Below are positions 4,615-55,103 of a DNA stretch of 56,368 nucleotides, piece by piece; the first letter of the stretch is position 1; each line of letters opens with the position of its first letter. Source of the DNA: a virus; the IMG/VR virus record IMGVR_UViG_3300045988_080971, positions 1-56,368 of that record; one strand, given 5' to 3'. The notes under the pieces are model-generated. The model worked only from the letters and a program-made list of their open reading frames with translations, did not search any database and was not told the DNA's origin. The position numbers and the translations under genes were made by a program.

Positions 4615-4862
4615 ATATAAACACCAATATATCAATACGAGGATTGGGGTAGGTTGAGGTGGATGTAGTAGTATTGATATATTTTAGCTTGTATCAATGA
4701 GGAAGTGGTTGAGTGTAGGGAGTGAATACAGACGTGTATTGTGTAATTGATACAAACGTTATAAAATATTTGGAGAATATATGACTTGATAGAGTAGGTT
4801 GAGTCCTCTATATTCGTTATTGTATTTTGCAACTACTCTGTGAAATACAATCCAAATATTAT

Positions 4863-4934
4863 AGCCTTATTGCCAAAAGGAAAGGCATCGGACTTTGATT
4901 CCGACATTTGCGGGTTCGACTCCCGCTAGGGCTG
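4863..4934 (+). tRNA. tRNA-Gln (anticodon UUG), no encoded CCA
   Basis: Hand-folded cloverleaf. Acceptor agcctta/tagggct (one G-U). D arm with GG. Anticodon stem tcgga/tccga with loop cTTTGat. 5-nt variable loop. T arm gcggg-ttcgact-cccgc. Discriminator G. Confidence 0.85.
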
Positions 4935-5136
4935 TGTTTCCTGGCAGACAAAAAGAAGAAAGCACATGATATTGAAAAATGGTGTGATTGGGAACTTGAG
5001 TGAGAATAAAGCTGGGAATATCACTCGTGTGCACATGAATGGAATATAAGTGGTTGCGTTTATGGGCTTATAGTGAATGTTCTGGAGGTTGTTCATTCAA
5101 AAACTAAACCAACTAAAAAGAAAGGAAAAAGAAAGT

Positions 5137-6211: not shown

Positions 6212-8473
6212 ATGGCATTATCATTTGCAAGACCAAAAAGCAATGATAAGAATATAATCAAAAAATCTAAAACAATAACAAATAGAACAAGTATCAGGAG
6301 CGGCGGAAATAATCTAGCCGCTCAAATACAATCTATAGTTGCTATTGCTAACCAAAAATTAGCAATTCATAAAGATGATTATATTCTTATTAGAGAACCA
6401 GATCAACTATATGAATATATGAAAGAAATGAAACAAGTTGGAGAGGGTGCGTTAGATACGGAGACCACAGGATTAAATCCATTACTTGTAGATATAGTCG
6501 GCGGATGTATTTATACACCTGGACAAAAAGCGGCATATATTCCAATCAATCATAAGTCGTATATTACAGGTGTAAGAACAAAGGAACAGATGGATGAGGA
6601 AACTGTTTCAAAGATTATGAAAGAGTTTCATAAGGATATTAGATGGATTTTTCATAATGCAAAGTTTGATATAAGAATATGTAGAAAGACGTTAGGTATC
6701 GACATCTTGCCATATTGGGACACAGAGATTGCCGCTCATTGTATAGATGAAGAAGAAAGTCACAGATTGAAAGACTTGCACCTTAAATATTGCGATAGTA
6801 AAGATACAGAGTCTTTGACATTTGACGCATTATTTAAGGGAGTAACATTTGATAATATTCCAATCTCAACAGGATATTTATACGCGGCGGGTGATGCAGT
6901 AAAGACATATGAATTATATCAATATCAAAAAACACTTTTGAATAGAAGAGTTTTATCCGGACCTTATAATGTATTCAAGAATATTGAAATGCCTTTGATT
7001 CCAGTTGTAGCAGACATGGAAGATAGAGGTGTATGTCTTGACTTTGATGTGTGTAAAAATTTACACGAAAAATATCATAAGATAAAGGAAGAAAGACAAA
7101 AACAAGCTGATGAAACAATAGCACTGTATAAGGATGAAATTGATAATTATAAGATGAAAAATCCTAATAATAAGTTGTCAGATCCTATATCATTATCAAG
7201 TCCAACTCAGCTTGCAATATTATTTTATGATATTTTAGGATTAGAAAGTCCAGATAAAAAAGCACCTAGAGGAACAGGAGAAGAGATTTTAAAACATTTT
7301 GCACAAGGCAAGCACCAAAATCTATGTGAGAATATTTTAGCCTTGAGAAATGTTGATAAGCTATTAAGCACTTATATTGATAAGATGCCTGAAATTGTGC
7401 TTACAGATGGAAGGATTCATGGTGAGTTTAAGCAGTATGGAGCTAAGACTGGTCGATTTAGTTCTAAAGACCCAAACTTACAGAATATCCCTTCGCATAA
7501 CAAAGATATTAGACAAATGTTTAAGGCACAGGATGGGTATGTACTTATAGGGTCGGATTTCAGTCAGCAGGAACCGATGGTTACTGCACACTTATCGGAT
7601 GATAAAAAAATGCAAGAAGCATTTATAAACGGCAAGGATATATATGCGACAATCGCCGCACTTGCATTTCATAAACCATATGAAGAGTGTAAAGAGTTCA
7701 GAAAAGATGGAACAGTAAATCCAGCCGGAAAAGAAAGAAGAACACAAGCTAAGAGCATAGTTCTTGGAATTTTGTATGGTAGACAAATTCCATCTATTGC
7801 AGAACAGCTTGGAGTTTCTACAAAGGAGGCGCAAGCCATATATGATAAGGTTATATCTTCATTTCCTGCACTCGGTAAATTTATCGAAGATTCACGAGAA
7901 ATGGCAAGAACCGAAGGATATGTAACTACTGCATGGGGTAGAAGAAGACATTTACACGATATGCAGTTAGAACGATATGAATTTTCATATAGCGGAAAAG
8001 TCACTAACTTCGACCCATTAGCATTTGGAAGTGAAGTATCTACAGAAGTTCCAAAGAAAGTAAAAGACAGTTATATCAAACAACTTGATAAAGCATTTGG
8101 GTGGAAAAAGAAAAATGATATAATTCAAAAAGCATTAGCTGAAGGAATTAAGATCAAGGATAATGGCGGATTTATAGCACAGGCGGAAAGACAATGTGTA
8201 AATGCAAGAGTACAAGGTTCAGCGGCGGATATAACAAAGCTGGCTATGATTGCTATAAACAATGATGAAAGAATGAAAGAACTTGATTTCCATTTGCTGA
8301 TACAGGTACATGATGAAGTAATAGGAGAATGTCCTATTGAAAATGCAAAGGAAGCAGGAGAAAGACTTTCATATCTTATGAGAACTGCACCTAGTCATTT
8401 GATTAAACTTCCATTCAAGTGCGATGTGGATTTTACTAAAAACTGGTACGGCGAAGAAGTGGAGATTGAATAA
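6212..8473 (+). CDS. polA: DNA polymerase I (family A) with 3'-5' exonuclease domain
   Basis: Exo motifs ALDTETTGL, HNAKFDI, YAAGDA; pol motif A GSDFSQQEP, motif B RRTQAKSIVLGILYG, motif C LIQVHDEVIGE. Confidence 0.9.
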   Translation: MALSFARPKSNDKNIIKKSKTITNRTSIRSGGNNLAAQIQSIVAIANQKLAIHKDDYILIREPDQLYEYMKEMKQVGEGALDTETTGLNPLLVDIVGGCIYTPGQKAAYIPINHKSYITGVRTKEQMDEETVSKIMKEFHKDIRWIFHNAKFDIRICRKTLGIDILPYWDTEIAAHCIDEEESHRLKDLHLKYCDSKDTESLTFDALFKGVTFDNIPISTGYLYAAGDAVKTYELYQYQKTLLNRRVLSGPYNVFKNIEMPLIPVVADMEDRGVCLDFDVCKNLHEKYHKIKEERQKQADETIALYKDEIDNYKMKNPNNKLSDPISLSSPTQLAILFYDILGLESPDKKAPRGTGEEILKHFAQGKHQNLCENILALRNVDKLLSTYIDKMPEIVLTDGRIHGEFKQYGAKTGRFSSKDPNLQNIPSHNKDIRQMFKAQDGYVLIGSDFSQQEPMVTAHLSDDKKMQEAFINGKDIYATIAALAFHKPYEECKEFRKDGTVNPAGKERRTQAKSIVLGILYGRQIPSIAEQLGVSTKEAQAIYDKVISSFPALGKFIEDSREMARTEGYVTTAWGRRRHLHDMQLERYEFSYSGKVTNFDPLAFGSEVSTEVPKKVKDSYIKQLDKAFGWKKKNDIIQKALAEGIKIKDNGGFIAQAERQCVNARVQGSAADITKLAMIAINNDERMKELDFHLLIQVHDEVIGECPIENAKEAGERLSYLMRTAPSHLIKLPFKCDVDFTKNWYGEEVEIE

Positions 8474-9636
8474 TGGAATTGTATCTAGCTGGCTCACAAC
8501 AACCTTTTGAACGTGTAAAGAGAGAGAGAGAGGATGATTTAATGGATTTATATTTAGCTGGAGAATATGTATTTACAGGAGAAAGAAAATTAGATATCGG
8601 AATTATAAGAAATCGTCTTCTTTCTTTTGATTATCAAAAAAAGTTTGTAGATACCATAATAGATTGGAAAGATAATATGGAGTTGTATTTAGCAGGTGCT
8701 GATAAATTTGGAAAAGAAGAGGTGAAACAGTATATGAAACTTTATTTAGCAGGGATGGAAGAGTCTTGTGTGGATAAGATTGACTGCAATGCCCTTTTCA
8801 GCTATATTGATCGGGGCAAACTACAATTTGATAAACTGAAAGATTTTATAAAACCCGGAAAATTATTTATAGATTCTGGTGCGTTTAGTGCATGGACAAA
8901 AGGCTCCAAAGTAAATGTGAAAGAATACATTAGCTGGCTGAACGAAAGATCCGATGATATAAATCTTTGCGGTCAAGTGGATGTTATCCCTGGAGATAGG
9001 GTTTTTGGGGCTACACCTAAACAGGTTCGGGAAGCCGCACAATCAACATGGGATAATTATCTTTTTATGAGAAAAAGACTAAAAAATCCGGATTCCTTGT
9101 TATATACATTTCATGTAGGTGAACCAATCGAATTTCTAAAACAGGCTTTAGAATGGAGAGATGAAAATGGAAATCCTATTCCTTATATGGCATTTGGTGG
9201 TATGGTTGGAAAGCCTGCTAAGATAAGGGATGTTTTCCTTGAGAAATGTTTCCGAACAATCCGGGAATCCAGTAATCCAAATATTAAGGTTCACGCTTTT
9301 GGTATGACGGATTTTGATTTATTAGAGAAATATCCTATATATTCTGCTGATAGTACAAGTTGGATTATGGTGGGGGCAATGGGAAATGTTATGAGTGATT
9401 ATGGAAATATAGCCGTATCAAATAATCAAATTCATGATAAGAATCATTATAGTCATTTACCAAAGAAAGCTATTGAGGATTTTAATAAGACAATTCAGGA
9501 ATTTGGGTTTACTTTGGACGAATTAGCAGAACATCGGGATAATCGTATATTATTTAATGCTTTGTATATGCAGAAGAAAGTAAAGGAATTAAATAAGAAA
9601 GAAAGAAAATTTTCTTATAGAAAGAGGTTATTTTAA
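8473..9636 (+). CDS. dpdA: DpdA-like DNA guanine transglycosylase (TGT superfamily) with duplicated N-terminal extension
   Basis: FIDSGAFSAW, FHVGE, MAFGGMVG, VHAFGMT and YSADSTSW motifs; TAATG overlap with the polA stop; adjacent preQ0 pathway genes. Confidence 0.7.
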   Translation: MELYLAGSQQPFERVKREREDDLMDLYLAGEYVFTGERKLDIGIIRNRLLSFDYQKKFVDTIIDWKDNMELYLAGADKFGKEEVKQYMKLYLAGMEESCVDKIDCNALFSYIDRGKLQFDKLKDFIKPGKLFIDSGAFSAWTKGSKVNVKEYISWLNERSDDINLCGQVDVIPGDRVFGATPKQVREAAQSTWDNYLFMRKRLKNPDSLLYTFHVGEPIEFLKQALEWRDENGNPIPYMAFGGMVGKPAKIRDVFLEKCFRTIRESSNPNIKVHAFGMTDFDLLEKYPIYSADSTSWIMVGAMGNVMSDYGNIAVSNNQIHDKNHYSHLPKKAIEDFNKTIQEFGFTLDELAEHRDNRILFNALYMQKKVKELNKKERKFSYRKRLF

Positions 9637-10553
9637 TGGATTTCAAATGTAGAGATTATTTATTTTCTAAAGACGATTGGTGTGATATTCGGGATATAGA
9701 AGGAGAAGAAAATGTATTAAATTCTACATTAATTCAAGAAGCTTTTGAAAAAATCCTAGATGATTATAATCCAAAATATAAATATGCAATTTTTAGCTTG
9801 TGTACTTCAACAAGACCATATCTTAAATCTAGGAAATGGAGTATGTATTATAAATGTTTTGGAAAATCTTGTGAATTAATAATATGTTCTAATGGAGGCA
9901 TAATACCTATTGAATATATGAATTGTTTTCCATTTTTAGAATATGATGCTCCACATACAAAAGAATTTACCCCACAGTATAAGAGATTATTTGTTAATAG
10001 ATTAAATAAATTTTTAGATAAATTTTCTTTTGAAAAAATAATTTTTATTTTTACACCAAACTCAAGAAATTATGAAGCATTATTGGAATTTCCTTTACCG
10101 GATAATTCTATTCTTATACCTTCATTAAAAATGTATGAAAATATAAAGAAAGGAATAGATGATAGGTACATTGGGGTATCTAGGACACGTGATATATTAT
10201 GTTGTGATACGATACTGTCTTATATAAAAAGATTTTTTTGTATTGAAAGTAATTATCTTGATATATTATATGAGAAATATCCTAATTCCCCTAAACCTAG
10301 TATGGATTCTTTGTTCAACAAGATGTTAAAAACTTTAGAAGTTGATAAAGGATATTCTTTGGAACAACTAATTTCAAAAATAATTTCATTAAATCCTATT
10401 TATTCCAGGGTTTATATTAGTAAGACAATTAAAGGCCATACAAAAAACATAGAATCAGAATTTAATAAAGAGGATAATCTTGTTTATGTGGATGGTTTAT
10501 ATTATCTTCTAAATTCTGATAAAAAGAAGGACAAACATAAAAAATTATTTTAA
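9636..10553 (+). CDS. DUF5591 / ArcS-like protein (putative 7-deazaguanine tailoring enzyme)
   Basis: LCTSTRPYLKSRKW resembles the ArcS signature PC-x3-KPY-x2-S-x2-H; TAATG overlap with the dpdA stop; very AT-rich gene. Confidence 0.45.
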   Translation: MDFKCRDYLFSKDDWCDIRDIEGEENVLNSTLIQEAFEKILDDYNPKYKYAIFSLCTSTRPYLKSRKWSMYYKCFGKSCELIICSNGGIIPIEYMNCFPFLEYDAPHTKEFTPQYKRLFVNRLNKFLDKFSFEKIIFIFTPNSRNYEALLEFPLPDNSILIPSLKMYENIKKGIDDRYIGVSRTRDILCCDTILSYIKRFFCIESNYLDILYEKYPNSPKPSMDSLFNKMLKTLEVDKGYSLEQLISKIISLNPIYSRVYISKTIKGHTKNIESEFNKEDNLVYVDGLYYLLNSDKKKDKHKKLF

Positions 10554-10571: not shown

Positions 10572-10599
10572 TTGACTTTTATTTTTTATGTGTTACAAT
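10572..10599 (+). promoter_or_regulatory. Promoter cassette P2 (TTGACT-N16-TGtTACAAT)
   Basis: -35 at 10572-10577, -10 at 10594-10599; same tatgtgttacaatata core as P1. Confidence 0.7.
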
Positions 10600-10648: not shown

Positions 10649-11176
10649 ATGCATTATTTATCAAGAAGGGACAACGAAACAAGGATTACTGTAAAGGAAC
10701 GGTATTCAGATGGAAATACTGTCGTAGCTGAATATCTTAATGGGGATAAGCAAGGTAAGACAGTTTCCTTCACTCATAGTACCTTAAAGAGATGGTGGAA
10801 AAAGGTAGATATAGAGGGGATATCCACAAAGTCCGAAAATTTAGAAAATAAAACTAAGAAGACAACAAGTAAGAAAAAACCTACAAAAATTGACAGAACA
10901 GAAGATATAAAAAAGATAGTTGAGATGTTCACCGATGATTATGAGTATAAATATTATGATTCAGTTAAATGTTATAAAATTTATGATATTATGAATCAGG
11001 CAACAGTTATTGCTGAAGTTTATCCCCGTAGAAAAAATATTGAAGTGCGTGTAAGGAATGTGAAAGAGAATGTAAAGGTAAATTATAAAGACGGTTATAA
11101 ATATTATTTACCAGTTCATTATTATGTTCCTTATGAAACGGATTATATCAAAATTATTAAGGATCTTTTATCTTAA
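10649..11176 (+). CDS. Hypothetical protein (175 aa), lysine-rich central linker
   Basis: AAAGGAGG RBS; first gene after P2. Confidence 0.55.
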   Translation: MHYLSRRDNETRITVKERYSDGNTVVAEYLNGDKQGKTVSFTHSTLKRWWKKVDIEGISTKSENLENKTKKTTSKKKPTKIDRTEDIKKIVEMFTDDYEYKYYDSVKCYKIYDIMNQATVIAEVYPRRKNIEVRVRNVKENVKVNYKDGYKYYLPVHYYVPYETDYIKIIKDLLS

Positions 11177-11312: not shown

Positions 11313-11777
11313 ATGGACAAAAAAGAATATATGAATTTAGGTGTATGTGAAGCCACTACCACAATGTACTTGAATATCGGTGGTCCATTTGGAGCAGTTG
11401 TTGTCAAAGACGGAGAAATTATTTCCGTTGCAAGTAATACAGTTCTTGGGGATAACGATCCAACAGCCCACGCAGAAGTGAACGCAATTAGAAAAGCTTG
11501 TAAAAAGCTTGGAACATATGATTTGACTGGGTGTGAATTATATGCCACAGGTTATCCATGCCCAATGTGTTTATCAGCTATCATATGGGCTAACATTAGA
11601 AAAGTGTATTATTGTAATGATGTAAAACAGGCAGAGAATATTGGTTTTCGGGACGATTTCATTTACGATTATATAAAGAATGGAAATCCGGATGTATTAG
11701 ATCTAGAATCTTGTACAACGGAACAAGGTTTAGGTTTATATGATCAATATACAGGGATGAACAAAATCATTTATTAA
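11313..11777 (+). CDS. CDA-fold zinc deaminase, GuaD-type guanine deaminase-like
   Basis: GGPFGAVVVKDG, DPTAHAEVNAIRKAC, PCPMCLSAI and GFRDDFIYDY closely recall Bacillus subtilis GuaD (about 155 aa). Confidence 0.7.
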   Translation: MDKKEYMNLGVCEATTTMYLNIGGPFGAVVVKDGEIISVASNTVLGDNDPTAHAEVNAIRKACKKLGTYDLTGCELYATGYPCPMCLSAIIWANIRKVYYCNDVKQAENIGFRDDFIYDYIKNGNPDVLDLESCTTEQGLGLYDQYTGMNKIIY

Positions 11778-11790: not shown

Positions 11791-12495
11791 ATGAAAGCAT
11801 TAGTATTAAATTCAGGTGGTGTAGATTCAACAACTTGTGTTGCAATAGCGGTAGATAAATATGGCAAAGAAAATGTTATAACAGCCTCTTTATATTATGG
11901 ACAGAAACATGATAAAGAATTACAGTGTGCTAAAAAGATCGCTGAATATTATGGTGTAAGACATATTGAGGAAGATATTTCAAATGTTATGAAGTACGCG
12001 GGTGAAGTTTGTTCTCTTGTTAAAGGTTCTAAAGAAGAGATTTTGGATATGAGTTATGCCGACCAGATCAAACAGAATGGAGAAGGACGTGTTGGTACTT
12101 ATGTACCTTTTAGAAATGGATTATTATTATCCATTGCCACAGCTTTTGCAGATAGTCTTTTCCCAGGAGAAGAAGTAGAAGTGTTCTATGGAGCTCATGC
12201 AGATGATGCGGCAGGTGAAGCATACGCAGATTGTTCTCCAGAATTTGCAGATGCTATGGATAAGGCAATAAATATTGGAACTTATGGAAAAATCCATATC
12301 AATCGACCACTTATCCACATGAATAAAGCGGAAGTGGTCAAAACCGGATTATCTTTGGGTGTACCTTATGAAATGACATGGAGTTGTTATCATGGAGGTG
12401 AAAAAGCCTGTGGAAGATGTGGAACGTGTATTGATAGGAGACACGCGTTTGAAGCCAATGGTGTAGGAGACCCTATTGAATATGAGGAGGATTAA
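11791..12495 (+). CDS. queC: 7-cyano-7-deazaguanine (preQ0) synthase QueC
   Basis: PP-loop LNSGGVDSTT; C-terminal zinc cluster CGRCGTCIDR. Confidence 0.9.
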   Translation: MKALVLNSGGVDSTTCVAIAVDKYGKENVITASLYYGQKHDKELQCAKKIAEYYGVRHIEEDISNVMKYAGEVCSLVKGSKEEILDMSYADQIKQNGEGRVGTYVPFRNGLLLSIATAFADSLFPGEEVEVFYGAHADDAAGEAYADCSPEFADAMDKAINIGTYGKIHINRPLIHMNKAEVVKTGLSLGVPYEMTWSCYHGGEKACGRCGTCIDRRHAFEANGVGDPIEYEED

Positions 12496-12499
12496 AAAA

Positions 12500-12853
12500 A
12501 TGTATTATGTATCAAAAAGAATGGAAATTGCAGGAGCTCATTATTTAGAGCTCCCATATGACAGCAAGTGTGGGAACTTACATGGGCATAATTGGATAAT
12601 TACCGTCCATTGTAAATCAGACAAGCTCACTGATTATGGAATGATCGTAGATTTTACAAAGATTAAGAAAGAAATACACGATAAGTTAGACCATTCTTGT
12701 GTGAATGAGGTAGTTTGTCCACTCAACCCAACGGCTGAGAATATAGCAAGATGGGTATTTGAAAGAGTTTCAGATATTTGTGAAGTCGGAACGTGTTATA
12801 AGGTAGAGGTACAGGAAAGTGAAGGAAATATTGCTACCTATGTGGAGGATTAG
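12500..12853 (+). CDS. queD: 6-carboxy-5,6,7,8-tetrahydropterin synthase QueD
   Basis: HGHNW motif, about 117 aa; GAGGAGG RBS 10 nt upstream of the ATG at 12500. Confidence 0.85.
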   Translation: MYYVSKRMEIAGAHYLELPYDSKCGNLHGHNWIITVHCKSDKLTDYGMIVDFTKIKKEIHDKLDHSCVNEVVCPLNPTAENIARWVFERVSDICEVGTCYKVEVQESEGNIATYVED

Positions 12854-12855: not shown

Positions 12856-13500
12856 ATGAAAGTAGTAGAAATATTTAAAAGCATTGATGGTGAGGGCAAA
12901 CGAGCTGGTTTACCCACCACATTTGTAAGATTATTTGGATGTAATTTGAATTGCTCATACTGTGATACAAGATACGGCTGTGAGGGGGATAAGTATACGA
13001 TTATGAGTATCCCTAATATAATAGATACATTAGAAAGGTATGGAACTAAATCAATTACAATCACTGGAGGGGAGCCACTTATACATCCAGGAATAAATCA
13101 TCTTGTTGAGGTGCTACTCCATAGAGGTTATTGGGTTAATATTGAGACAAACGGTTCACAGTACATCGGGCATCTTCCAACTAACCCAAATGTTTTCGTG
13201 ACAATGGATTATAAATGTCCTTCCAGTGGAATGCAAGATAAGATGTGTTTAGCTAATTTTCGTGAATTATCCAATACGGATGTCTTAAAATTTGTTGTAG
13301 GCTCATATGAAGACCTAGTATGTGCTTTAAGTATATTAGAGGAATATAAACCGTCTGCACAGGTTTATTTCAGCCCAGTATTTGGGGAGATTGAACCAGC
13401 GGCGATTGTTGATTTTATTTTAGACAATAAATTGGATAATTGTAAGATACAGTTGCAAATGCACAAGATAATTTGGGAACCAAATAAGAGAGGAGTATAA
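12856..13500 (+). CDS. queE: 7-carboxy-7-deazaguanine synthase QueE (radical SAM)
   Basis: [16 protein letters not shown] cluster motif; GGEPL. Confidence 0.85.
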
Positions 13501-13501: not shown

Positions 13502-14074
13502 ATGATAGATAAGAAAAGAATTGAAAAGGCAGTAAAAGAAATCTTAATTGCTTTAGGGGATAACCCGGAAAGACCCGGACTTGTAGATACACCAAAAAGA
13601 GTAGCTAAGATGTATGAGGAAGTATTTGAGGGAATGAACTACACCAACGATGAGATCGCAGAAAAATTCTGCAAATGTTTTGACACAGATAACGAGGATC
13701 TTGTTGTTGTAAAGGATATTCCAATTTTCAGTTATTGTGAACATCATCTAGCTTTGATGTATAATATGAGTGTGTCTATTGCTTATATTCCAAATGGAAA
13801 GGTATTAGGTCTAAGCAAATTTGCTCGGATTGCGGATATGGTTGGAAAGCGTCTACAGTTGCAGGAAAGAATTGGTTCCGATATAGCTGATATTATTCAG
13901 TTGGCTACTGGATCAAATGATGTGTTGGTTGTTGTTGAGGGGGAGCATAGTTGTATGACAGCTAGAGGTATTAAGAGTCGAGGAGCTAAAACAAGAACCG
14001 CGACAATCCGGGGGTTATTTGAGTCTAATGTAGAGCTTCGCAAAGAAGCCTATTCTTTAATGAGTTTGAACTGA
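13502..14074 (+). CDS. folE: GTP cyclohydrolase I (FolE)
   Basis: FSYCEHHL and RLQLQERI motifs, 190 aa. Confidence 0.9.
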
Positions 14075-14087: not shown

Positions 14088-15188
14088 ATGAAGGTAGTAA
14101 CAAGTAGAATGAAAGAAGCAGTAAACAAAGCAATTAAAGGAGCAGGATTTAATAATCTTATTCCTATTACCTCAATGATTGGTATTAAATTGTCAGATGG
14201 AAAGTTAAGATTACTTACAACAGACATGACTAATACATTATGTATTATCATTGACAAGGTAGCTGGGGACGATATGGACATCACAGTAGATGCAGATAAG
14301 TTTGGAAAACTGATTGCAAAGACAACTTCGGAAGATATTGATTTATCTGTAAAAGATGATGTACTTTTTGTCAAAGCAAACGGAATTTATAAGATTCCGT
14401 TGATTTCAGATGAAGAAGGACTTATCTCATTCCCAGATGTGAATCAGGAGTATGGTGCACCTCCTGAGAAGTGGACAGACGTTAAGCTTTCAAGTATAAT
14501 GCAGGCTTATAATATCAATAAATCAGCATTAGCAAAAACACTTGAGAACCCGGCTCTAACCGGTTACTATTGCGGAGATACTGTTATTTCAACTGATGCA
14601 AATGTAATTACATTCAATGGATTTAAGATGTTTGCATGGGATTTTCCAGTATTGATTTCAGCACAGCAGATGGCGTTAATCTCCCTATTTAAGGAGGAAG
14701 ATATAAAAGTAACTTGTGACCCTGAAAGAATTATTTTTGTAACAGATACACAGATTGTTGAAGGAAGTTTGATGGAAGGGGTTGAGGACTTCCCAGCTAA
14801 TGAAGTAAACGCTTATCTTGATGAGGCATTTACATCTTCTTGCAAAGTACCAAAGGATTTACTTCTTTCCGTACTTGATCGTCTTGCACTATTCATTGAA
14901 CCATATGATAAGAATGGAGCATATTTCACATTCGGAAGAAAGGGTATCAATATTCATAGTAAAAAGGACGCATCTACAGAGACTATCAACTATGTGGAAA
15001 GCAAGGACTTTGCGCCGTTTGTGTGTTGTGTGGATATTCCAATGTTGAAAGAGCAGTTGCAGGCTAACCCGGACGATACAGTGAAGATCTGTTACGGAAA
15101 TGAAAATGCGTTGAAGATTGAGAGCGGAAAAGTAACACAGGTTATAGCTCTACTTGAAGATGAGGAACTTGACAATATAAACGCATGA
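14088..15188 (+). CDS. DNA sliding clamp, beta (DnaN)-like
   Basis: 366 aa; N-terminal pattern IPITSMIGIKLSDGKLRLLTTD...DADKFGKLI matches the beta-clamp domain 1 layout; replisome context. Confidence 0.65.
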   Translation: MKVVTSRMKEAVNKAIKGAGFNNLIPITSMIGIKLSDGKLRLLTTDMTNTLCIIIDKVAGDDMDITVDADKFGKLIAKTTSEDIDLSVKDDVLFVKANGIYKIPLISDEEGLISFPDVNQEYGAPPEKWTDVKLSSIMQAYNINKSALAKTLENPALTGYYCGDTVISTDANVITFNGFKMFAWDFPVLISAQQMALISLFKEEDIKVTCDPERIIFVTDTQIVEGSLMEGVEDFPANEVNAYLDEAFTSSCKVPKDLLLSVLDRLALFIEPYDKNGAYFTFGRKGINIHSKKDASTETINYVESKDFAPFVCCVDIPMLKEQLQANPDDTVKICYGNENALKIESGKVTQVIALLEDEELDNINA

Positions 15189-18028: not shown

Positions 18029-18352
18029 ATGGAGAGACTAACAGAAAGAAATCCATCATGGATAGATGATGAATTATGGGAAAGTGCTTGTGAGCCAGAC
18101 TGTGAAGAAATAGACGCAGTATATCGAAAGTTAAAAGATTATGAGGACTTAGAGGAACAAAGAAAACTTGCTAAGCTACCATGTGCTATTGGGGATAAGG
18201 TTTATCTTATAGTCGATGATAAGGTTTTTGAAAGAGAAGTTGACCCAATGTTTTTAGGCGTACTGTGGGAAGAATTTAACAAAAGCTGGTTTCTCACAGA
18301 ATCAGAAGCCGAAGCAAAACTGAAAGAATTGGGAGGTGGAGAAAATGAGTGA
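18029..18352 (+). CDS. Hypothetical protein (107 aa)
   Basis: AAAGGAG RBS. Confidence 0.5.
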   Translation: MERLTERNPSWIDDELWESACEPDCEEIDAVYRKLKDYEDLEEQRKLAKLPCAIGDKVYLIVDDKVFEREVDPMFLGVLWEEFNKSWFLTESEAEAKLKELGGGENE

Positions 18353-18533
18353 TAAGCAGACCAATGCCGACAGAATAAGGAATATGTCGGATGAAGAGTT
18401 AACAGACTTTTTATCAAATATAACAAGTCAATGCGAATCTAATACCTCATGCAACCAACATTGTTTTGGGTGCTATGAGGAATATTGTGATGTAGAAAGA
18501 TGCTTAAAATGGCTTCAATCAGAAGCGGAATAG
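18345..18533 (+). CDS. Hypothetical Cys-rich protein (62 aa)
   Basis: GGAGGTGGAG RBS; ATG at 18345. Confidence 0.45.
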   Translation: MSDKQTNADRIRNMSDEELTDFLSNITSQCESNTSCNQHCFGCYEEYCDVERCLKWLQSEAE

Positions 18534-20074: not shown

Positions 20075-21087
20075 GTAATCTTGATTTAATTATAAAAGAC
20101 TTAAATAAGAAAATGAAGGTAGGAAATATTCAGCTCGGTGTTGATTTTCAGGAAGTGCAGAAAATTCCGTTTTCATCATGTCGTCTAAATTATATGACAT
20201 ATGGTGGTATTCCGGTTGGAAGAATAGCTGAGTTCTATGGAGCAGACGGAAGCGGAAAGACAACCACCGCTATTGATCTTGCCGGAAACGCTCAGAAGAT
20301 GTTTCCAGATAAAAAAGTGTTGTTTATAGATATTGAAAGAACATTTGATACAGAATGGGCTACAAAGCTAGGACTTGACTGTGATAATATCATATATCTT
20401 GACCCGGATAGCATGGGGGCGGAAGATGTATTCAATATCACAATTGATCTTGTTGATAGCGGAGAAATAAGTCTTTGCATATTAGATTCTATAGGAGCAA
20501 TGGTTTCCACACAGGCAAATGAAAAGCAGATTGGAGAAAGAACATACGGCGGAGTTAGTATGGCATTGACTGAATTTAGTAAGAAAATAACTCCAGTTCT
20601 TGCAAGAACACAAACTGCTTTTATAGGAATAAATCAAGTTCGTGATGATATGAATAGTATGTATGGTGGAACAACAACGACAGGTGGAAGAGCGTGGCGA
20701 CATAGTTGTAGCACCAGACTTGAATTTAGAAAAGGAAATTATATTGATGAGAAAGGTAATAATCTTTCAAGAGCTTGTGAGAATCCTGCAGGAAATATAG
20801 TAAATGTAGCATTAGTGAAATCTAAAGTATGCAGACCAGATAGAAAAGTAGGTTTCTACACATTAAAATATCTCGAAGGAATTGACTATGTATCAGATGC
20901 AGTAGATGTGGCAATCAAGATGGGATTAGTTGTGCAAGGAGGAGCATGGTTCTCTTTAATTGATACAGAAACTGGTGAAATATTAAGCAAATACCAAGGT
21001 AAATCCAAGCTAGTTGAGTATCTAAAGGAAAATGATAAATATACAGATTTCTATTCAAAACTGGAGAAATTATTAAATGAAGAGTAA
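20071..21087 (+). CDS. recA: RecA-like recombinase
   Basis: Walker A GADGSGKTT, Walker B LCILDSIGA; GGGAGGAAG RBS before the ATG at 20071. Confidence 0.8.
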   Translation: MSNLDLIIKDLNKKMKVGNIQLGVDFQEVQKIPFSSCRLNYMTYGGIPVGRIAEFYGADGSGKTTTAIDLAGNAQKMFPDKKVLFIDIERTFDTEWATKLGLDCDNIIYLDPDSMGAEDVFNITIDLVDSGEISLCILDSIGAMVSTQANEKQIGERTYGGVSMALTEFSKKITPVLARTQTAFIGINQVRDDMNSMYGGTTTTGGRAWRHSCSTRLEFRKGNYIDEKGNNLSRACENPAGNIVNVALVKSKVCRPDRKVGFYTLKYLEGIDYVSDAVDVAIKMGLVVQGGAWFSLIDTETGEILSKYQGKSKLVEYLKENDKYTDFYSKLEKLLNEE

Positions 21088-21721
21088 TGCATATCTAAAC
21101 GAGCAGGATATATTGAATTGGTATAAGACACCATTTGAGATGGAGTTTACGAATAAAGGGTTCCCGATATTGGAACCCTTAAAGTCGTTATCTATACCAA
21201 GGCGGGGGTTGAGAACATTGCCTTTCAATTATGCTTTATCTAATAAGGATAAAGATTATTTTGTACATTTTTATATACAAGATTATTTATTCAATCGGAT
21301 TTGGAACAACCCTCAAAGATATATTGATGTGTTGAAAGAATATAAAGGAATTGTTATGCCTGATTTTAGCTTATACACAGATATGCCTGAACCGTTGCAA
21401 AGATTCAATCACTATAGGAATTTATGGTTTGCCAGAATGTGTCAAATGCAAGGAATTACAGTTATTCCATCCCCTAATTGGTCAACAAAGGATAGTTTAG
21501 AATGGTGTCTTGATGGAATGTCAAAAGATAGTGTTATTATGCTATCAGCAGTGGGGAGTATTAAGAATCCACAGGTATTTGATAACTTTATTTATTGTAC
21601 TAGATATATGCAAGAAGTACTGCAACCTAGTCATATATTATTGAGATGTCCTAAAAAAAGTTATGATAAACTAAAATCATATATAGATACATCTTGTAGT
21701 TTTGTAAATTATAATGTATAA
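21077..21721 (+). CDS. DUF4417-like protein
   Basis: Recalled family resemblance only (FHFYIQDY...NLWFARMCQ). Confidence 0.35.
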   Translation: MKSNAYLNEQDILNWYKTPFEMEFTNKGFPILEPLKSLSIPRRGLRTLPFNYALSNKDKDYFVHFYIQDYLFNRIWNNPQRYIDVLKEYKGIVMPDFSLYTDMPEPLQRFNHYRNLWFARMCQMQGITVIPSPNWSTKDSLEWCLDGMSKDSVIMLSAVGSIKNPQVFDNFIYCTRYMQEVLQPSHILLRCPKKSYDKLKSYIDTSCSFVNYNV

Positions 21722-23821: not shown

Positions 23822-24154
23822 ATGACAACTAGATATTATTCTGATAGACAGGAAAAACATATAGCCATAGTAACCAGAGGTAAAGTGCAGAGCAACTCCG
23901 GCGGAACAAGATTTGGAGGGGGTGATGTACATACAAAAAAATTCTTTATAGAGGCTAAAACGCCTACAACTGAGAACCAGTCATTTTCCATTAAAAAAGG
24001 GTGGTTTCAAAAACTGTATGAACAGACTTATGAGCAAGGAAAACTTGAGGGAGTTCTTGCTTTTAGATTTTCGCCAGATGATAGAACTGATATGTATGTT
24101 TTGAATGAGCGACAGTTCTTAGAGTATTTAAGATATAAGGAGGATAATGAATAA
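23822..24154 (+). CDS. PD-(D/E)XK-like nuclease, possible Hjc-type resolvase
   Basis: GGGDVHTKKFFIEAKT resembles a D...E-x-K catalytic core; small size. Confidence 0.35.
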   Translation: MTTRYYSDRQEKHIAIVTRGKVQSNSGGTRFGGGDVHTKKFFIEAKTPTTENQSFSIKKGWFQKLYEQTYEQGKLEGVLAFRFSPDDRTDMYVLNERQFLEYLRYKEDNE

Positions 24155-25203
24155 TGGCAAAAGAATCACTGGCAGTTAAATATCGACCTCGTTCGTTTGA
24201 GGATCTTACTGAACAGGGTGCAATTAAAGATATTTTGGAAAATCAGATTAAAACAAAGACATTTCAGCATGGGTATTTGTTTACTGGTCCGGCAGGAACA
24301 GGTAAGACAACATCTGCAAGAATCTTTGCGAGCATGATAAATGATGGAAAGGGGAATCCTATCGAAGTGGATGCCGCAAGTAATAGTGGCGTTGATAATG
24401 TTCGTCAGATTATAGACGATGCAAAAAGAAAACCACTTGATGCCGAATACAAGATATTCATAGTGGATGAGTGTCATTCATTGTCAAATGGGGCATGGCA
24501 GGCATTATTAAAGACACTTGAAGAACCTCCAAAGTTTACTATTTTCATTTTCTGCACCACTGACCCACAGAAAGTACCTGCAACAATTCTTTCAAGAGTA
24601 CAGAGATACAATTTTCAGAAGATAAGTAATGAAGGTATCGTGGAAAGATTAGAGCATATTTGCCTAACTGAAAATTCTCAAGATGTAAATGACCCAAATT
24701 TAACGGATATCGGAGATATAATAAGATATCCAGAAGCATTAGAATATATTGCTAAGGTTTGTAATGGTGGTATGAGAGATGCTATAACTTTGATGGATAA
24801 ATGTCTTTCATTATCTCCAGATTTAACACTGGAAAATGTGTTAAAAACTATAGGTGTAGAAGATTATAATACATTTATATTATTCTTAATGGCATTACAG
24901 AATAAAGAAAAAGGAACTGCCATTACTACAATAGAAAATGTATATAATGCCGGTAAAGATGTAAAGCAGTTTATGAAAGACTTTGCAAAGTTTGTTCTTG
25001 AGGTGGAAAAGTATATTTTATATGGAAACTTTGACTATATAAGTATTCCCTCAACACTGAAAGAGGACTTGGATTCTTTGGATAACACATCTGTATTTGA
25101 TATTATGGATTTTGTGGTTAATCTTAATAATCAGCTTAAATGGGAAAATGATCCAAAGACATTGATTGAATTATCTATCTTGATTTATTGTGGAAAGGAG
25201 TAG
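24154..25203 (+). CDS. dnaX: Clamp-loader ATPase, DnaX (gamma/tau)-like
   Basis: GPAGTGKTT Walker A, IVDECH Walker B, LEEPP, SRVQRY sensor motif. Confidence 0.8.
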   Translation: MAKESLAVKYRPRSFEDLTEQGAIKDILENQIKTKTFQHGYLFTGPAGTGKTTSARIFASMINDGKGNPIEVDAASNSGVDNVRQIIDDAKRKPLDAEYKIFIVDECHSLSNGAWQALLKTLEEPPKFTIFIFCTTDPQKVPATILSRVQRYNFQKISNEGIVERLEHICLTENSQDVNDPNLTDIGDIIRYPEALEYIAKVCNGGMRDAITLMDKCLSLSPDLTLENVLKTIGVEDYNTFILFLMALQNKEKGTAITTIENVYNAGKDVKQFMKDFAKFVLEVEKYILYGNFDYISIPSTLKEDLDSLDNTSVFDIMDFVVNLNNQLKWENDPKTLIELSILIYCGKE

Positions 25204-25207
25204 ATAT

Positions 25208-25993
25208 ATGATTGGTCAGAAAAACAACATAAATACTCTTATCCAGTGGCGGTGTAATAAGTCAGTTCCTAGATTCATTATCATTTCTGGTGATATGGGT
25301 AGCGGAAGATTGACCCTTGCGAAAGTAATTATAAAAATGATAAATGCAAAAGGAATAATCGTGGGAAATAGTATTGCAGAAGTCCGGGAAACAATAGAAA
25401 ATGCTTATACTATTACAGAACCGATCTGTTATATATTTAGAAATGCTGATGATATGAGAACAGAGGCTAAAAATGCGCTCCTTAAAGTTGTGGAAGAACC
25501 GCCAAACAACGCTTATTTTATAATGACTGTTGAAAACATAGATAATATGTTGGGAACTATCAAGAGCAGGGGAACAGTAATATCAATGGAACCTTACTCT
25601 CAGAAAGAATTAAAAAGTGTTTGTGATGATGACTTTATTTTGCAGTATGCTACAAATATAGCAGATACAAAGCGAGAAAGAGCAGAGTTGGAAAGAACTG
25701 AGGATTGTGTACTTGATGTTATAGCTGGAATGAAAGCTAAAAGCGGAACAAAGATATTAAAAGCTACTACACAGTTAAGATCAAAAGCCACAGAAACAGA
25801 TAAGATTGATTGTTTATTATTTATGCTCATGTTCAAAGCAGAGCTTTTACATCATCCCGAATTATACAATCAAAACAGTTTAAAACATCTTGTGAAATGC
25901 ACCCAGGAACTACAGAGGATGAGTGTTAATAAAAAAGCGAGCATTGAATGTATGCTGGTGTCGTTATTAGAGGAGGTAAAGAATGAGACTTAA
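25208..25993 (+). CDS. Clamp-loader subunit, delta-prime-like
   Basis: Degenerate P-loop GDMGSGRLT; VEEPP; IKSRG. Confidence 0.6.
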   Translation: MIGQKNNINTLIQWRCNKSVPRFIIISGDMGSGRLTLAKVIIKMINAKGIIVGNSIAEVRETIENAYTITEPICYIFRNADDMRTEAKNALLKVVEEPPNNAYFIMTVENIDNMLGTIKSRGTVISMEPYSQKELKSVCDDDFILQYATNIADTKRERAELERTEDCVLDVIAGMKAKSGTKILKATTQLRSKATETDKIDCLLFMLMFKAELLHHPELYNQNSLKHLVKCTQELQRMSVNKKASIECMLVSLLEEVKNET

Positions 25994-26258
25994 AGAAATA
26001 TATCCTGGGATATTCACTGGAGTTTATCGAGGTGTAGAGTGCGGAGTTGATAATGATACAGGAAATTGGAATTATTCTGGAACACTTCCATTTCCTGACG
26101 TGTCCCAGCCTAGATTTAGCAGTTATGATAACGTCATTGTTTTTAGTAGCTTTGAGGATTGTGTGGGCGCCTTAAAGAAATATATAGATAGTGTATATGA
26201 AAGGCGGGAAGAATATGCAAAGCTTTCCAAGACGATGGAACATAAAGACCAAAATTGA
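25983..26258 (+). CDS. Hypothetical protein (91 aa)
   Basis: ORF overlapping neighbours within the clamp-loader operon. Confidence 0.45.
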   Translation: MRLKEIYPGIFTGVYRGVECGVDNDTGNWNYSGTLPFPDVSQPRFSSYDNVIVFSSFEDCVGALKKYIDSVYERREEYAKLSKTMEHKDQN

Positions 26259-26577
26259 ATATTTACAGCGTAAGATTATATTAAATAGTATAGCATACTA
26301 TGAACTAAATACAAATAAGCTCACAGATAAACAGTATGACGAGTTGAGCAGGCAGTTGGTAGCTATGCAAGTAGAATACCCGAACATAATGGACACTCAG
26401 TATGGTTATGTGTTTTATGACTTTGATGGTTCAACCGGGTTTGACTTGTATCATAGACTTAATAGGCATGACAAAGAATATTTATATAATATAGCTTGTC
26501 ATGTTTGCAATGATATAAAATCTATAAAGCAAGCAAAACCTAAACCAGTCAAGAAAAAGAAAGGAGTATTATTTTGA
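26215..26577 (+). CDS. Small protein resembling the NAD-ligase (LigA) domain Ia, with basic ...VLF tail
   Basis: IEYLQRKIILNSIAYYELNTNKLTDKQYDELSRQLVAMQVEYP resembles LigA Ia; no KxDG adenylation motif. Confidence 0.35.
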   Translation: MQSFPRRWNIKTKIEYLQRKIILNSIAYYELNTNKLTDKQYDELSRQLVAMQVEYPNIMDTQYGYVFYDFDGSTGFDLYHRLNRHDKEYLYNIACHVCNDIKSIKQAKPKPVKKKKGVLF

Positions 26578-26765
26578 CAACAAACGAAACAAAGAAATAT
26601 AGAGCATGGTTTTCCAAACAGTGGATAATTGTATGTAAGCAGTTGAAGAAATCGAGCATAGACTGGAATCATGTATATATTACACCTTCTCCACTTTTGA
26701 AAAATCCACCGGAGAGGAGTGAGATACTTGGAACTGTCGGAATTGATGAAGAAGATTTCTGGTAA
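26574..26765 (+). CDS. Hypothetical protein (63 aa)
   Basis: TTG start overlapping the upstream stop. Confidence 0.35.
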   Translation: MTTNETKKYRAWFSKQWIIVCKQLKKSSIDWNHVYITPSPLLKNPPERSEILGTVGIDEEDFW

Positions 26766-27678
26766 TGATATTCCTCATTATCTAGTGTTGTATGGGCAAG
26801 AACAAACTGTATTAGATATGTACATTAAGCAGATAGTGAGCATGACACAATCACAAGCAGTATATGTTGATACCGTAGCAAGTGTTATAAAGCAATGTGG
26901 AAAAAAGAGTCTCAATAAATCTGTGAAATGCTATATTGTATCAGACGACCTGTCTTATCTTAAAGCAGGAACTGTTTGGGATAAGATAAAGAAAGATTTT
27001 AAAAAAAGTAAGGACTATTTGATATTGAGGTATCACACATTAGACAAGAGAGATAAATTTTCACACAACAATAAGGAAAATTTAACTGAATTTGCGCATT
27101 TAAGTGCTGAGGTGCTACAACAATACATCTATAAAGATTTACCGGATTTAAGTGAAAAAAATGCTTTATCTTTAATTGACTACTGTAATTATGATTATGG
27201 TAGAATATTGATGGAAATTGACAAAATCAAACAGTATATGTCGGTTAGAACAGACCTAACAGTAGATAGTTGTTTCAATCAGTTAGATAGACAAGGATTA
27301 TTTCATAAAGAAATCGGAGATATAACATTTGAACTTACTAATGCGGTGTTGGGTGGATATACAGATCAAGCTATTGTGAAATTGGACGAGGCAAAGCGCA
27401 AGAACGAACCAGCTATGATGATAGCCTCAATTTTATATAACGGATTTAGAAATCTTTTAGCATATCAAGGACTCGGTAAAAATAAACAAGGTGCAATGGA
27501 AAGGACTGGATTGACTAAAGGTGAATTATACGGATGCTCAAAAAACATAGGTGGATATAGTTTATCAGAAGTAAAAAGAAATATGTTGTTCTGTCAGCAA
27601 GTAGAATCCGGAATAAAAACAGGACTAATTGATGAAGATATAGCACTTGATTATTTAGTATTGCATTGTTTAAGATAA
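26719..27678 (+). CDS. Clamp-loader subunit, delta (HolA)-like (putative)
   Basis: PHYLVLYGQEQ N-terminal pattern, size and operon position; start uncertain (GTG 26719, TTG 26728 or ATG 26746). Confidence 0.45.
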   Translation: MRYLELSELMKKISGNDIPHYLVLYGQEQTVLDMYIKQIVSMTQSQAVYVDTVASVIKQCGKKSLNKSVKCYIVSDDLSYLKAGTVWDKIKKDFKKSKDYLILRYHTLDKRDKFSHNNKENLTEFAHLSAEVLQQYIYKDLPDLSEKNALSLIDYCNYDYGRILMEIDKIKQYMSVRTDLTVDSCFNQLDRQGLFHKEIGDITFELTNAVLGGYTDQAIVKLDEAKRKNEPAMMIASILYNGFRNLLAYQGLGKNKQGAMERTGLTKGELYGCSKNIGGYSLSEVKRNMLFCQQVESGIKTGLIDEDIALDYLVLHCLR

Positions 27679-52040: not shown

Positions 52041-53756
52041 ATGATTAAAATACATATAGGAGAGCCAGATAAGCTCTCCAACAACATTTTAGTAAAAAAG
52101 AGTGCTTTTGTATCTTTCGATTATAACCCGGATATTGTTTCATTTATCAAGCAAATGGGAACAAGGGTTTATAACCCAAATACAAGAGCATGGGAAATTC
52201 CCATAAATAATATCATTTCTCTTTGCAACAAATTTGAGAATGAAGAAATCAAAATTGATGGTATCTATGAAGATTTACACAAGCAGGAATTTGAAATTGA
52301 TATTCCAAAAGATTTTGAGTTCAAGACAAAGCCATTCAATCATCAGATTGACGGTGTAAGATTTGGATTAAATAAAAAGAAATTCCTGTTATGCGATGAC
52401 CAAGGACTTGGAAAAACAAAGCAGATTATAGACTTCGTTGGTTGTCTCGAAAAAACAGATACAATCAATAAAGTGCTTATCGTGTGTGGTGTAAATTCAT
52501 TAAAGTATAACTGGCAGTCAGAAATTAGTATCCATTCAGATGAAAAAGGATGGGTTCTTGGCACACGTTTTAGAAAAACAACAGGAAAAGCTTATGAGGG
52601 TTCAACAAAGGATAAGCTTGAAGATTTGAACAATCTTCCAGATTGCAGATACATTATTACCAATATTGAAACGTTAAGAGCTGGAGCCGAAAAAATAAGT
52701 AAAAGCAAATATCATTTCCCGATTGCAGAAAAGTTACAGGAATTATGCAAAAAAGGAATTATATCTGTAATTGCCTTTGATGAATGTCATAAGTCTAAAG
52801 AGCCAACATCATTACAGAGCCACGCAATGATAAATGTAACAGCGAAATATATGGTTGCAATGAGTGGTACACCGTTGATGAACAACCCACTTGATTTATA
52901 TTTTCCTTTACATTGGTTAGGATATGAACCTCATTCTTTCTATCAGTTCAAAACACATTATTGTACACTTGGCGGCTGGGGAGGTTCACAAGTTGTAGGC
53001 TACAAGAACCTTGAAGAAATAAGAGCATTGATGGATGAAGTAATGCTCAGAAGATTAAAGACAGAAGTTCTTGATTTACCGGAGAAAATAAGAAAATATG
53101 AATATGTAGATATGACACCTAAACAGAATCAAATATACAAGGAAGTATATGCAGGTGTTATGAGTGATTTACAGAAGATTAAATTCTCAAATAATCCGCT
53201 TTCAATGATGATTAGATTAAGACAAGCGACAGGCTGGACAGGTATTATATCAAATACAGTTCAAGAATCTGCTAAAATGGAAAGAATGACTGAATTAGTG
53301 CAAGAGATTGTAGCAAGTGGACAGAAAGCTATTATTTTTAGCAACTGGGAAAGCATGACAGAAGTAGCAAGAGAGAAATTGAAATCTTATAGTCCAGCTT
53401 ATATCACAGGTGCAACAAAAGCAGACGAACGAATGAAAGAGGTTGAAAGATTTCAAACTGATGATAAATGCAAGGTGATTATAGGAACTATTGGAGCAAT
53501 GGGAACAGGTCTTACATTAACCGCCGCTCAGAATGTTATATTCTTAGACAGCCCTTGGAACATGGCATTAAAAGCACAGGCAGAAGATAGAGCACACAGA
53601 ATCGGTACAAAAGGAACAGTTAATATAATTACACTTGTTTGCAAAAATACCATTGATGAGAGAATTGAGGAACTTGTTGAAAAGAAAGGACAGATTGCGG
53701 ATGCTCTTGTAGATGGTAAGGTAAGCATAGACGATATTAACTATCTTCTTTCATAA
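52041..53756 (+). CDS. SNF2-family helicase/ATPase
   Basis: Motif I DDQGLGKTKQ, motif II AFDECHKSK, motif III SGTPLMNN, motif VI QAEDRAHRIG. Confidence 0.85.
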   Translation: MIKIHIGEPDKLSNNILVKKSAFVSFDYNPDIVSFIKQMGTRVYNPNTRAWEIPINNIISLCNKFENEEIKIDGIYEDLHKQEFEIDIPKDFEFKTKPFNHQIDGVRFGLNKKKFLLCDDQGLGKTKQIIDFVGCLEKTDTINKVLIVCGVNSLKYNWQSEISIHSDEKGWVLGTRFRKTTGKAYEGSTKDKLEDLNNLPDCRYIITNIETLRAGAEKISKSKYHFPIAEKLQELCKKGIISVIAFDECHKSKEPTSLQSHAMINVTAKYMVAMSGTPLMNNPLDLYFPLHWLGYEPHSFYQFKTHYCTLGGWGGSQVVGYKNLEEIRALMDEVMLRRLKTEVLDLPEKIRKYEYVDMTPKQNQIYKEVYAGVMSDLQKIKFSNNPLSMMIRLRQATGWTGIISNTVQESAKMERMTELVQEIVASGQKAIIFSNWESMTEVAREKLKSYSPAYITGATKADERMKEVERFQTDDKCKVIIGTIGAMGTGLTLTAAQNVIFLDSPWNMALKAQAEDRAHRIGTKGTVNIITLVCKNTIDERIEELVEKKGQIADALVDGKVSIDDINYLLS

Positions 53757-54851: not shown

Positions 54852-55103
54852 ATGCACAATAATATTAGATGTTGTCCAAAGTGTAGTTCCTGCTTTATAA
54901 ATTATCAGTTTGTGCAGGAAAACGCAAAGACAAAAACAAATAATGTTAGTATACTGTCAAAACTTGGCAGAGCGTTGCTTGTACTTTGTACTTGTGGACT
55001 TTGGTTATTAGTGCCAAAACGCAAAAGCACAAGTAAAACAAATATAAGATCAAGAAAAATAGCTATCTGCAATACTTGCGGTTATAGCTGGGAAGTTAAA
55101 TAA
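54852..55103 (+). CDS. Zinc-ribbon membrane protein
   Basis: CPKC...CNTC pairs flank the TM LLVLCTCGLWLLV. Confidence 0.5.
   Translation: MHNNIRCCPKCSSCFINYQFVQENAKTKTNNVSILSKLGRALLVLCTCGLWLLVPKRKSTSKTNIRSRKIAICNTCGYSWEVK

Follow-up and report, generated by a model that had tools for sequence, protein, structure and literature searches.

What does a relative of archaeosine synthase (ArcS) do in a phage genome that encodes no RaSEA-type radical S-adenosylmethionine (radical-SAM) partner for it? The gene that raises this question is an ATG-started open reading frame (ORF) of 305 residues at 9636-10553 (+) of IMG/VR virus record IMGVR_UViG_3300045988_080971, which we analysed over its whole length of 56,368 nt ('the window'). 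By homology and predicted fold, its product is an ArcS2, in which the catalytic (C1/DUF5591) domain of archaeosine synthase occurs by itself; we propose that this domain has been recruited for DNA hypermodification, and that it converts preQ0 residues in phage DNA to 2'-deoxyarchaeosine (dG+). The 7-deazaguanine DNA modifications shield phages from restriction enzymes, and preQ0 in DNA (dPreQ0) also protects one phage from CRISPR-Cas9 in vitro; these modifications are of interest as tools as well. ArcS2 is the least understood enzyme of the pathways that make them: one member has been tested, with a very low yield. The parts of the gene to which we refer are as follows.

9636-10553, plus strand: ArcS2-like protein, 305 residues (PF17884, tblastn, hhalign, Foldseek, AlphaFold2)
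9636-10250, plus strand: catalytic core, about residues 1-205, homologous to ArcS C1/DUF5591 (alignments, fold match to PDB 2q07)
9795-9839, plus strand: signature S-L-C-TST-R-P-Y-LK-S-R-K-W, residues 54-68 (alignments)
10251-10514, plus strand: C-terminal extra domain, about residues 206-293, winged-helix-like (AlphaFold2 models, Foldseek)
10515-10550, plus strand: basic tail ending KDKHKKLF, candidate docking peptide (tail conservation)

An ArcS core domain standing alone

A first-pass annotation of this DNA had suggested kinship with ArcS and DUF5591 from the letters alone, and profile and structure searches bear this out. PF17884 (DUF5591) matches the ORF with 45.3 bits (E = 1.1e-11; gathering cut-off 26), residues 37-138 aligning with profile positions 5-108 of 150, and a precomputed match to the same family is present in 69/69 close homologues. 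Among 50,697 cultured phage genomes the best tblastn match is VPFG_00169 of Vibrio phage nt-1 (E = 2e-24), the others being limited to the nt-1 relative CZ01 and Methanobacterium virus PhiF1. A profile built from 45 homologues aligns with nt-1 ArcS2 over 202 columns (hhalign probability 100%, E = 4.2e-43). The AlphaFold2 model of the protein has a predicted local distance difference test score (pLDDT) of 92.1; its top viral match in BFVD is the nt-1 DUF5591 protein (Foldseek E = 3.4e-16; template-modelling score 0.77, normalised to target), and its sole significant fold match in the PDB is 2q07 (E = 1.8e-5). The latter is AF0587, an archaeal DUF5591+PUA protein and the only relative with a solved structure; the homologue-alignment profile also finds it in the PDB, with E = 1.4e-11. 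Searches of the PDB by sequence and by fold returned no full-length ArcS or ArcS-RaSEA structure, 2q07 alone matching. Two other candidates were rejected: a Pfam match to the Argonaute PAZ domain falls short of the cut-off (19 bits where 27 are required; E = 0.0015) and does not fit the model, and weak Foldseek matches to UDG/SMUG1 folds (probability 0.35 or less) are not significant.

DUF5591 is the only domain that Pfam finds in the protein; the TGT-like N-terminal, C2 and PUA domains that accompany it in archaeal ArcS are missing. The archaeal ArcS equivalog models of NCBIfam, NF040592 and NF053620, give 29.2 and 21.3 bits against cut-offs of 440 and 600, and the alignment covers no more than model positions 278-386 of 575; the protein therefore falls outside canonical archaeal ArcS. 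With archaeal enzymes such as that of T. kodakarensis, and with AF0587, it shares the homologous C1/DUF5591 domain and the Cys, Pro-Tyr and Ser of the signature; its predicted substrate, like theirs, is a preQ0 residue already in nucleic acid, whereas its presumed target is DNA rather than tRNA and it has no RaSEA partner. Closest to it among characterised proteins is nt-1 ArcS2 (VPFG_00169 / YP_008125320; Hutinet 2019, Cui 2023), a core-only DUF5591 protein with the same signature and predicted fold, whose gene also lies beside a preQ0 pathway and a DNA transglycosylase, again with no RaSEA. Such core-only proteins make up the published phage family ArcS2 (PMC10516641). The two proteins are only about 29-32% identical, and they come from different phages: the window represents a Dp-1-like siphovirus of 56 kb whose host is probably Gram-positive, and nt-1 is a T4-like jumbo vibriophage.

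The gene is under purifying selection: against a 74%-identical orthologue in the metagenomic locus L002, the ratio of nonsynonymous to synonymous substitution rates (dN/dS) is 0.18 overall, 0.14 in the core and 0.28 in the C-terminal domain. In PHROGs the ORF has no family match, and megablast of its 5.6-kb module against the 50,697 phage records gave no match and hence no close cultured relative. We conclude that it is a new member, from an uncultured lineage, of a known family and not a new kind of protein. With it, the range of ArcS2 extends to a far larger, uncultured set of Dp-1-like phages whose hosts are Gram-positive: about 77 clusters at 50% identity, against three cultured viruses that have a match.

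The signature is where the protein departs most visibly from its archaeal relatives. In HMMER alignments SLCTSTRPYLKSRKW, at residues 54-68, pairs column for column with LLPCTARKPYLTSRTH of AF0587. Compared with the archaeal motif PC-x3-KPY-x2-S-x2-H, the Cys, the Pro and Tyr of PY and the Ser are kept, while three positions differ: P to L55, K to R60 and H to W68. The first-pass annotation had correctly named the Pro and His changes; the third, in the Lys of KPY, was visible in the string that it quoted and went uncounted. It had treated the altered signature and the missing radical-SAM partner as peculiarities of this gene, and on both counts the relatives tell otherwise. The nt-1 counterpart SLCTTTRPYENSRKW has the same xC-x3-RPY-x2-S-x-KW form, and 69/69 close homologues conform to S-[LM]-C-x3-R-P-Y-x2-[SG]-x-K-[WY], as do about 80 cluster representatives in sharing the signature, so the altered motif is no idiosyncrasy of the window. 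Across 45 homologues C56, R60, P61, Y62 and K67 are invariant and S65 and W68 nearly so; the putative active site also takes in S85, P91 and Y103, which never vary, and E93 and D104, which rarely do. Archaeal DUF5591 proteins have many of these residues too, including a downstream S...P.E...P...YD block.

How far does this form extend? A profile search of 1.84 billion representatives (50%-identity clusters) gave 423 matches at E<=1e-3, 161 at E<=1e-10 and 77 at E<=1e-30. Among representatives with E-values up to about 1e-24, all those whose motif region could be located carry RPY...KW (a few fragments and other matches gave no motif match); weaker representatives shift to KPY with His or another last residue, and include long proteins of the archaeal PC...KPY..S..H type. 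The switch specific to the subfamily is K to R, T to K and H to W. The nt-1 ArcS2 paper calls the motif 'slightly degenerated' (PMC10516641). On the strength of these alignments, we regard RPY...KW not as a degenerate archaeal motif but as the hallmark of a phage subfamily, predicted to act on DNA, and RPY...KW versus KPY...H as a sharp sequence divider between phage enzymes and archaeal tRNA enzymes.

The absence of a radical-SAM partner was also as first described. QueE (12856-13500) is alone among sizeable ORFs of the window in having CxxxCxxC (two tiny Cys-rich ORFs, at 18336-18533 and 54852-55103, share the spacing), and Pfam finds Radical_SAM in QueE only among 38 scanned window proteins, leaving no RaSEA-type partner. 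This is the rule in related phages: in none of the ten related loci that we inspected does ArcS2 have a RaSEA-like neighbour. The radical-SAM proteins other than QueE in these relatives are an NrdG-like activase in L011 and a lone 234-residue protein 6 kb away in L008.

A predicted route to dG+ and its alternatives

The genes around arcS2 supply both the precursor and the enzyme that would install it.

8473-9636, plus strand: DpdA, DpdA1-type DNA guanine transglycosylase, ending YRKRLF (phrog_887, E = 2.6e-47)
10649-11176, plus strand: 175-residue ORF between ArcS2 and the deaminase (orthologue in L002/L003 only, 53% identical)
11313-11777, plus strand: guanine-deaminase-like enzyme of the cytidine deaminase (CDA) fold, 154 residues (PF00383, E = 3e-25)
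11791-12495, plus strand: QueC, preQ0 synthase (PF06508, E = 3.4e-55)
12476-12853, plus strand: QueD (PF01242, E = 2.9e-29)
12856-13500, plus strand: QueE, radical SAM (PF04055, PF13353, CxxxCxxC scan)
13502-14074, plus strand: FolE, GTP cyclohydrolase I (PF01227, E = 3.8e-64)
14088-15188, plus strand: beta-sliding-clamp-like protein, to which the LF tails are proposed to dock (Dp-1 gp10 homology)

The stop codon of dpdA and the start codon of arcS2 overlap by one base (TAATG), and we propose that the pair is translationally coupled. In nt-1 the two genes do not overlap in this way and the partner is DpdA2; BLASTP finds no similarity between nt-1 DpdA2 and the DpdA of the window, which is 38-41% identical to those of Streptococcus phages Dp-1 and MS1 and Bacillus phage Flasso. 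It matches 232 phage records, with Flasso, MS1 and Dp-1 the best.

We hypothesize the following sequence of events, to which we give a probability of roughly 60%. FolE, QueD, QueE and QueC would convert GTP to preQ0; DpdA would exchange guanine in phage DNA for preQ0; and ArcS2, acting on DNA rather than on the free base, would add an amine from a nitrogen donor to dPreQ0 at the carbon of its nitrile; the product would most likely be dG+, formed with no RaSEA-type radical-SAM step. In QueF and QueF-L the nitrile is activated as a thioimidate by a Cys; by analogy, the invariant Cys56 probably does the same here. QueF-L and the Gat-QueC of phage 9g arrive at the same end product that we predict (G+ or dG+) from preQ0, likewise with no radical-SAM step, yet their folds are unrelated to that of ArcS2, and QueC of the window has no glutamine-amidotransferase domain; nor did Pfam scans find a QueF-like protein in the window. 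The winged-helix-like domain and the KLF tail would keep DpdA and ArcS2 on DNA, probably docked to the phage beta-clamp, such that modification follows replication.

The strongest support for dG+ comes from nt-1: with its DpdA2 alone, E. coli plasmid DNA acquires dPreQ0, and with DpdA2 and ArcS2 together it acquires dG+, in cells to which no RaSEA was supplied (PMC10516641). Native nt-1 DNA contains low levels of dPreQ0, dADG and dG+ (PMC6884629). In four related loci (L008, L010, L011 and L012) the module is reduced to DpdA, ArcS2 and YhhQ, a preQ0 importer, which argues that ArcS2 acts downstream of preQ0.

Several observations weigh against this route. The dG+ yields of nt-1 are tiny (4-7 per 10^6 nt in E. 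coli and 44 per 10^6 in virions), whereas co-expression of ArcS2 lowered dPreQ0 from 926-1607 to 0-11 per 10^6 nt (PMC10516641); with dPreQ0 nearly gone and so little dG+ formed, the main product may be something other than dG+. The DNA of Sulfolobus virus STSV-2, which has an ArcS homologue, carries dCDG and not dG+ (PMC10516641). The ArcS2 partner tested in nt-1 was DpdA2, and that of the window is of the DpdA1 type. Three positions of the archaeal motif are changed in ArcS2, the Lys of KPY among them. The resemblance of the extra domain to winged-helix DNA-binding domains, which supply all its top Foldseek matches in the PDB (FOXA2, Fur, H1, Cdt1), is not statistically significant (best E-value 0.06), and the basis for clamp docking is motif conservation and co-occurrence only. 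The large loss of dPreQ0 set against scant dG+, in particular, keeps three other readings in play: an adduct that the assay did not monitor, a reaction at the level of the free base, and hydrolysis.

The first of these, whose core the first-pass annotation had put forward and which is unlikely in our estimation, is that ArcS2 stops at or makes another amidine, a preQ0-lysine-like amino-acid adduct or one with another amine, with dG+ a minor by-product. It would explain where the dPreQ0 of nt-1 went. In T. kodakarensis, what ArcS transfers is lysine, and completion of G+ depends on RaSEA (PMC11298593); RaSEA is missing from the window and from every related locus inspected, and the main text of the paper that reports the nt-1 assay mentions neither lysine nor RaSEA (PMC10516641). 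The switch of K to R, T to K and H to W could moreover reflect a different donor. What argues for dG+ instead is that its detection depended on nt-1 ArcS2 and that it is also found in nt-1 virions, and that an adduct of this kind in phage DNA has never been reported. Furthermore, the M. jannaschii ArcS is reported to make G+ directly from Gln, Asn or NH4+. That the whole RPY...KW subfamily, the window gene included, has such an amino-acid or amine adduct of dPreQ0 as its main product on phage DNA, rather than dG+, seems to us equally doubtful. If it were so, a ninth 7-deazaguanine modification of DNA would join the list, a bulkier one, and DpdA and ArcS2 would install it at the replication fork while tethered to the clamp.

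Just as improbable, in our view, is that ArcS2 acts on the free base or nucleotide, turning preQ0 into G+ that DpdA then inserts. T. kodakarensis ArcS does accept the preQ0 nucleoside and its 5'-phosphate (PMC11298593), and the loss of dPreQ0 on co-expression fits a drained preQ0 pool. But every DpdA tested inserts preQ0, and a winged-helix-like domain with a replisome-type tail would be ill-suited to a small-molecule enzyme. Gene order points the same way: arcS2 is coupled to dpdA and not to the QueC, QueD and QueE genes, which are preceded by a promoter-like site of their own (10572-10599, extended -10), upstream of the 175-residue ORF.

Hydrolysis we consider less probable still. Here ArcS2 would hydrate or hydrolyse the nitrile to dADG or dCDG, or it would make an amidine that then undergoes deamination to the amide, perhaps through the deaminase encoded nearby. 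Hutinet et al. (PMC6884629) raised the idea that phage ArcS could be an amidohydrolase and found 72 dADG per 10^6 nt in nt-1 DNA, but think that this dADG may come from spontaneous oxidation of dPreQ0 (PMC6884629); STSV-2, whose DNA carries dCDG, has both DpdA and ArcS (PMC10516641). A CDA-fold hydrolytic deaminase does lie inside the cluster in 4/10 related loci, but it is missing from many ArcS2 loci and is closest to genuine guanine deaminases: that of the window has B. subtilis guanine deaminase (1tiy/1wkq) as its best PDB match (E = 1.1e-34). And in the heterologous test nt-1 ArcS2 gave dG+. This deaminase could remove guanine freed by DpdA, which might pull the base exchange forward, or it could act on a 7-deazaguanine; it has no mention in the two key papers (PMC10516641, PMC6884629). 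Its C-terminus is IY, as in the L002, L004 and L009 orthologues.

Finally, the tight coupling of dpdA and arcS2 and the DNA-binding-like domain might suggest a non-catalytic, DNA-binding accessory of DpdA, but this is very improbable, given that C56, R60, P61, Y62, S85, P91 and Y103 are invariant and many of them common to archaeal DUF5591 proteins, that the extra domain is missing from most family members, and that nt-1 DpdA2 works alone while ArcS2 changes the product (PMC10516641).

The C-terminal domain and a shared LF tail

Beyond its core, the protein of the window carries an extension that nt-1 ArcS2, which ends in SLANFF, does not have: a domain of about 90 residues followed by the basic KLF tail. 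In the AlphaFold2 model the domain has an H-H-H-beta-hairpin topology (helices 223-233, 242-252 and 258-267; hairpin 282-291). It occurs in only seven family members, those of the window and of homologues P0002, P0003, P0004, P0006, P0007 and P0013. The tail is far more widespread: [LIMF]F stands within the last 3 residues, after a basic run, in 51/69 ArcS2 homologues. Residues 300-305 of the model have pLDDT below 50.

DpdA ends in the same way. The LF codons lie at 9625-9633 (DpdA) and 10542-10550 (ArcS2) of the window, and such tails are present on both proteins in 7/7 loci that encode a phage clamp and absent from both in the three loci with no phage polymerase or clamp (L008, L011, L012). 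The DpdA C-termini read:

Window: YRKRLF
L002: YRRGLF
L004 and L005: KRRLF
L009: three paralogues, each [GS]LF
L010: KKMTLF
Dp-1 (gp07, L006:3793-4728): RQRRLF
Flasso (L007:6989-7885): SQGKLF

The LF tails resemble the QLxLF beta-clamp-binding motif, and we infer that they may be a common docking peptide. The candidate partner, at 14088-15188, is a very divergent protein: it is 29% identical over its full length to Dp-1 gp10 DnaN (E = 3e-31), its Pfam and NCBIfam DnaN matches are below threshold, and a PDB sequence search with it gave no match; we identify it as a clamp from the gp10 homology together with the sub-threshold profile matches. Its loader genes lie further downstream (24154-25203, 25190-25993 and 26719-27678).

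The motif may recur elsewhere in the replication machinery. PolA of the window (N-terminus at 6212-6226) and of L002, L004, L005, L009 and L010 begins MALSF, MALFD, MAGFF, MGLFD or SGLF, which may be the same docking motif at the other end of a protein. A small LigA-Ia-like protein encoded among the clamp-loader genes (26191-26577) ends in KKKKGVLF.

As far as the literature shows, the winged-helix-like domain, the shared LF tail and the deaminase within the cluster are new. The DNA-binding-like domain, the LF peptide by which DpdA and ArcS2 may be held on the phage clamp, and the embedded guanine deaminase are leads that bear on how 7-deazaguanine hypermodification of DNA is organised.

A conserved module and its history

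The order PolA-DpdA-ArcS2-(deaminase)-QueC/D/E-FolE-clamp recurs in metagenomic loci L002-L005, L009 and L010, and its first three genes keep their order down to about 40% identity; PolA, DpdA, ArcS2, the preQ0 genes and the clamp form a conserved module of Dp-1-like phages. With Dp-1, MS1 and Flasso the window shares the preQ0 genes, a DpdA1 ending in RLF or KLF, DnaN, a Cas4-like exonuclease, RecA/UvsX and clamp loaders. Those three phages use a QueF-type reductase, and Dp-1 DNA carries dPreQ1 (PMC6884629), whereas the lineage of the window has ArcS2 directly after DpdA. Tandem DpdA paralogues flank ArcS2 in two loci: three with LF tails at L009:6149-9759 and two without at L008:6469-7982. 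In the tail-less clade (L008, L011, L012) the order is ParB_N protein, DpdA, ArcS2 and YhhQ/Vut_1, adjoining the terminase, with ParB_N about 1 kb upstream of ArcS2; this protein is reminiscent of DpdB, the ATPase with which DpdA is paired in bacteria.

The composition of arcS2 had been taken as a hint of separate acquisition. The gene is indeed the most AT-rich of the region: its G+C content is 24.6% against 35.2% for the window, exactly 12 G+C fall within the 60 bases 9961-10020, and only 0.3% of 918-nt windows match its AT-richness. Its G+C at third codon positions (GC3) is 0.15, against 0.21-0.36 in its neighbours. About half of the excess stems from amino-acid composition (F, L, I, M, N, K and Y make up 53% of residues). 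In the eight loci compared, however, the GC of ArcS2 follows that of its neighbours, and the 74%-identical L002 copy has GC3 equal to theirs. Since the gene also overlaps dpdA by one base and the gene order is conserved, recent separate acquisition is not supported. Identity between the window and L002 ranges gene by gene from 49% to 92%, a spread that we attribute to ordinary phage mosaicism; at most, arcS2 may have undergone local allele exchange by the same process.

At the 5' end of dpdA, four in-frame copies of M-[EDK]-L-Y-L-A-G lie at residues 1, 24, 69 and 88 of the ORF (8473-8760), three of them visible as 30-nt DNA repeats at 8532, 8667 and 8724. Homology with other DpdAs sets in at the fourth copy, and the second is where the L002 orthologue has its start; these could be duplicated N-termini or alternative starts. 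The likely true start of QueD is the ATG at 12500, as in the L002 orthologue, which begins MYYVSKRM. The 175-residue ORF at 10649-11176 matches no Pfam, PHROG or NCBIfam family.

The window as a whole is an apparently complete 56-kb genome of siphovirus type, with all genes on one strand. Besides the replication module and preQ0 genes it carries a terminase, an SPP1-type portal and a GH25+CW_7 lysin, which together indicate a Gram-positive host. It also encodes a single tRNA-Gln (anticodon TTG) at 4862-4935, in the replication module, a DUF4417 protein at 21077-21721 (E = 7e-43) and an SNF2/HARP-type helicase at 52041-53756.

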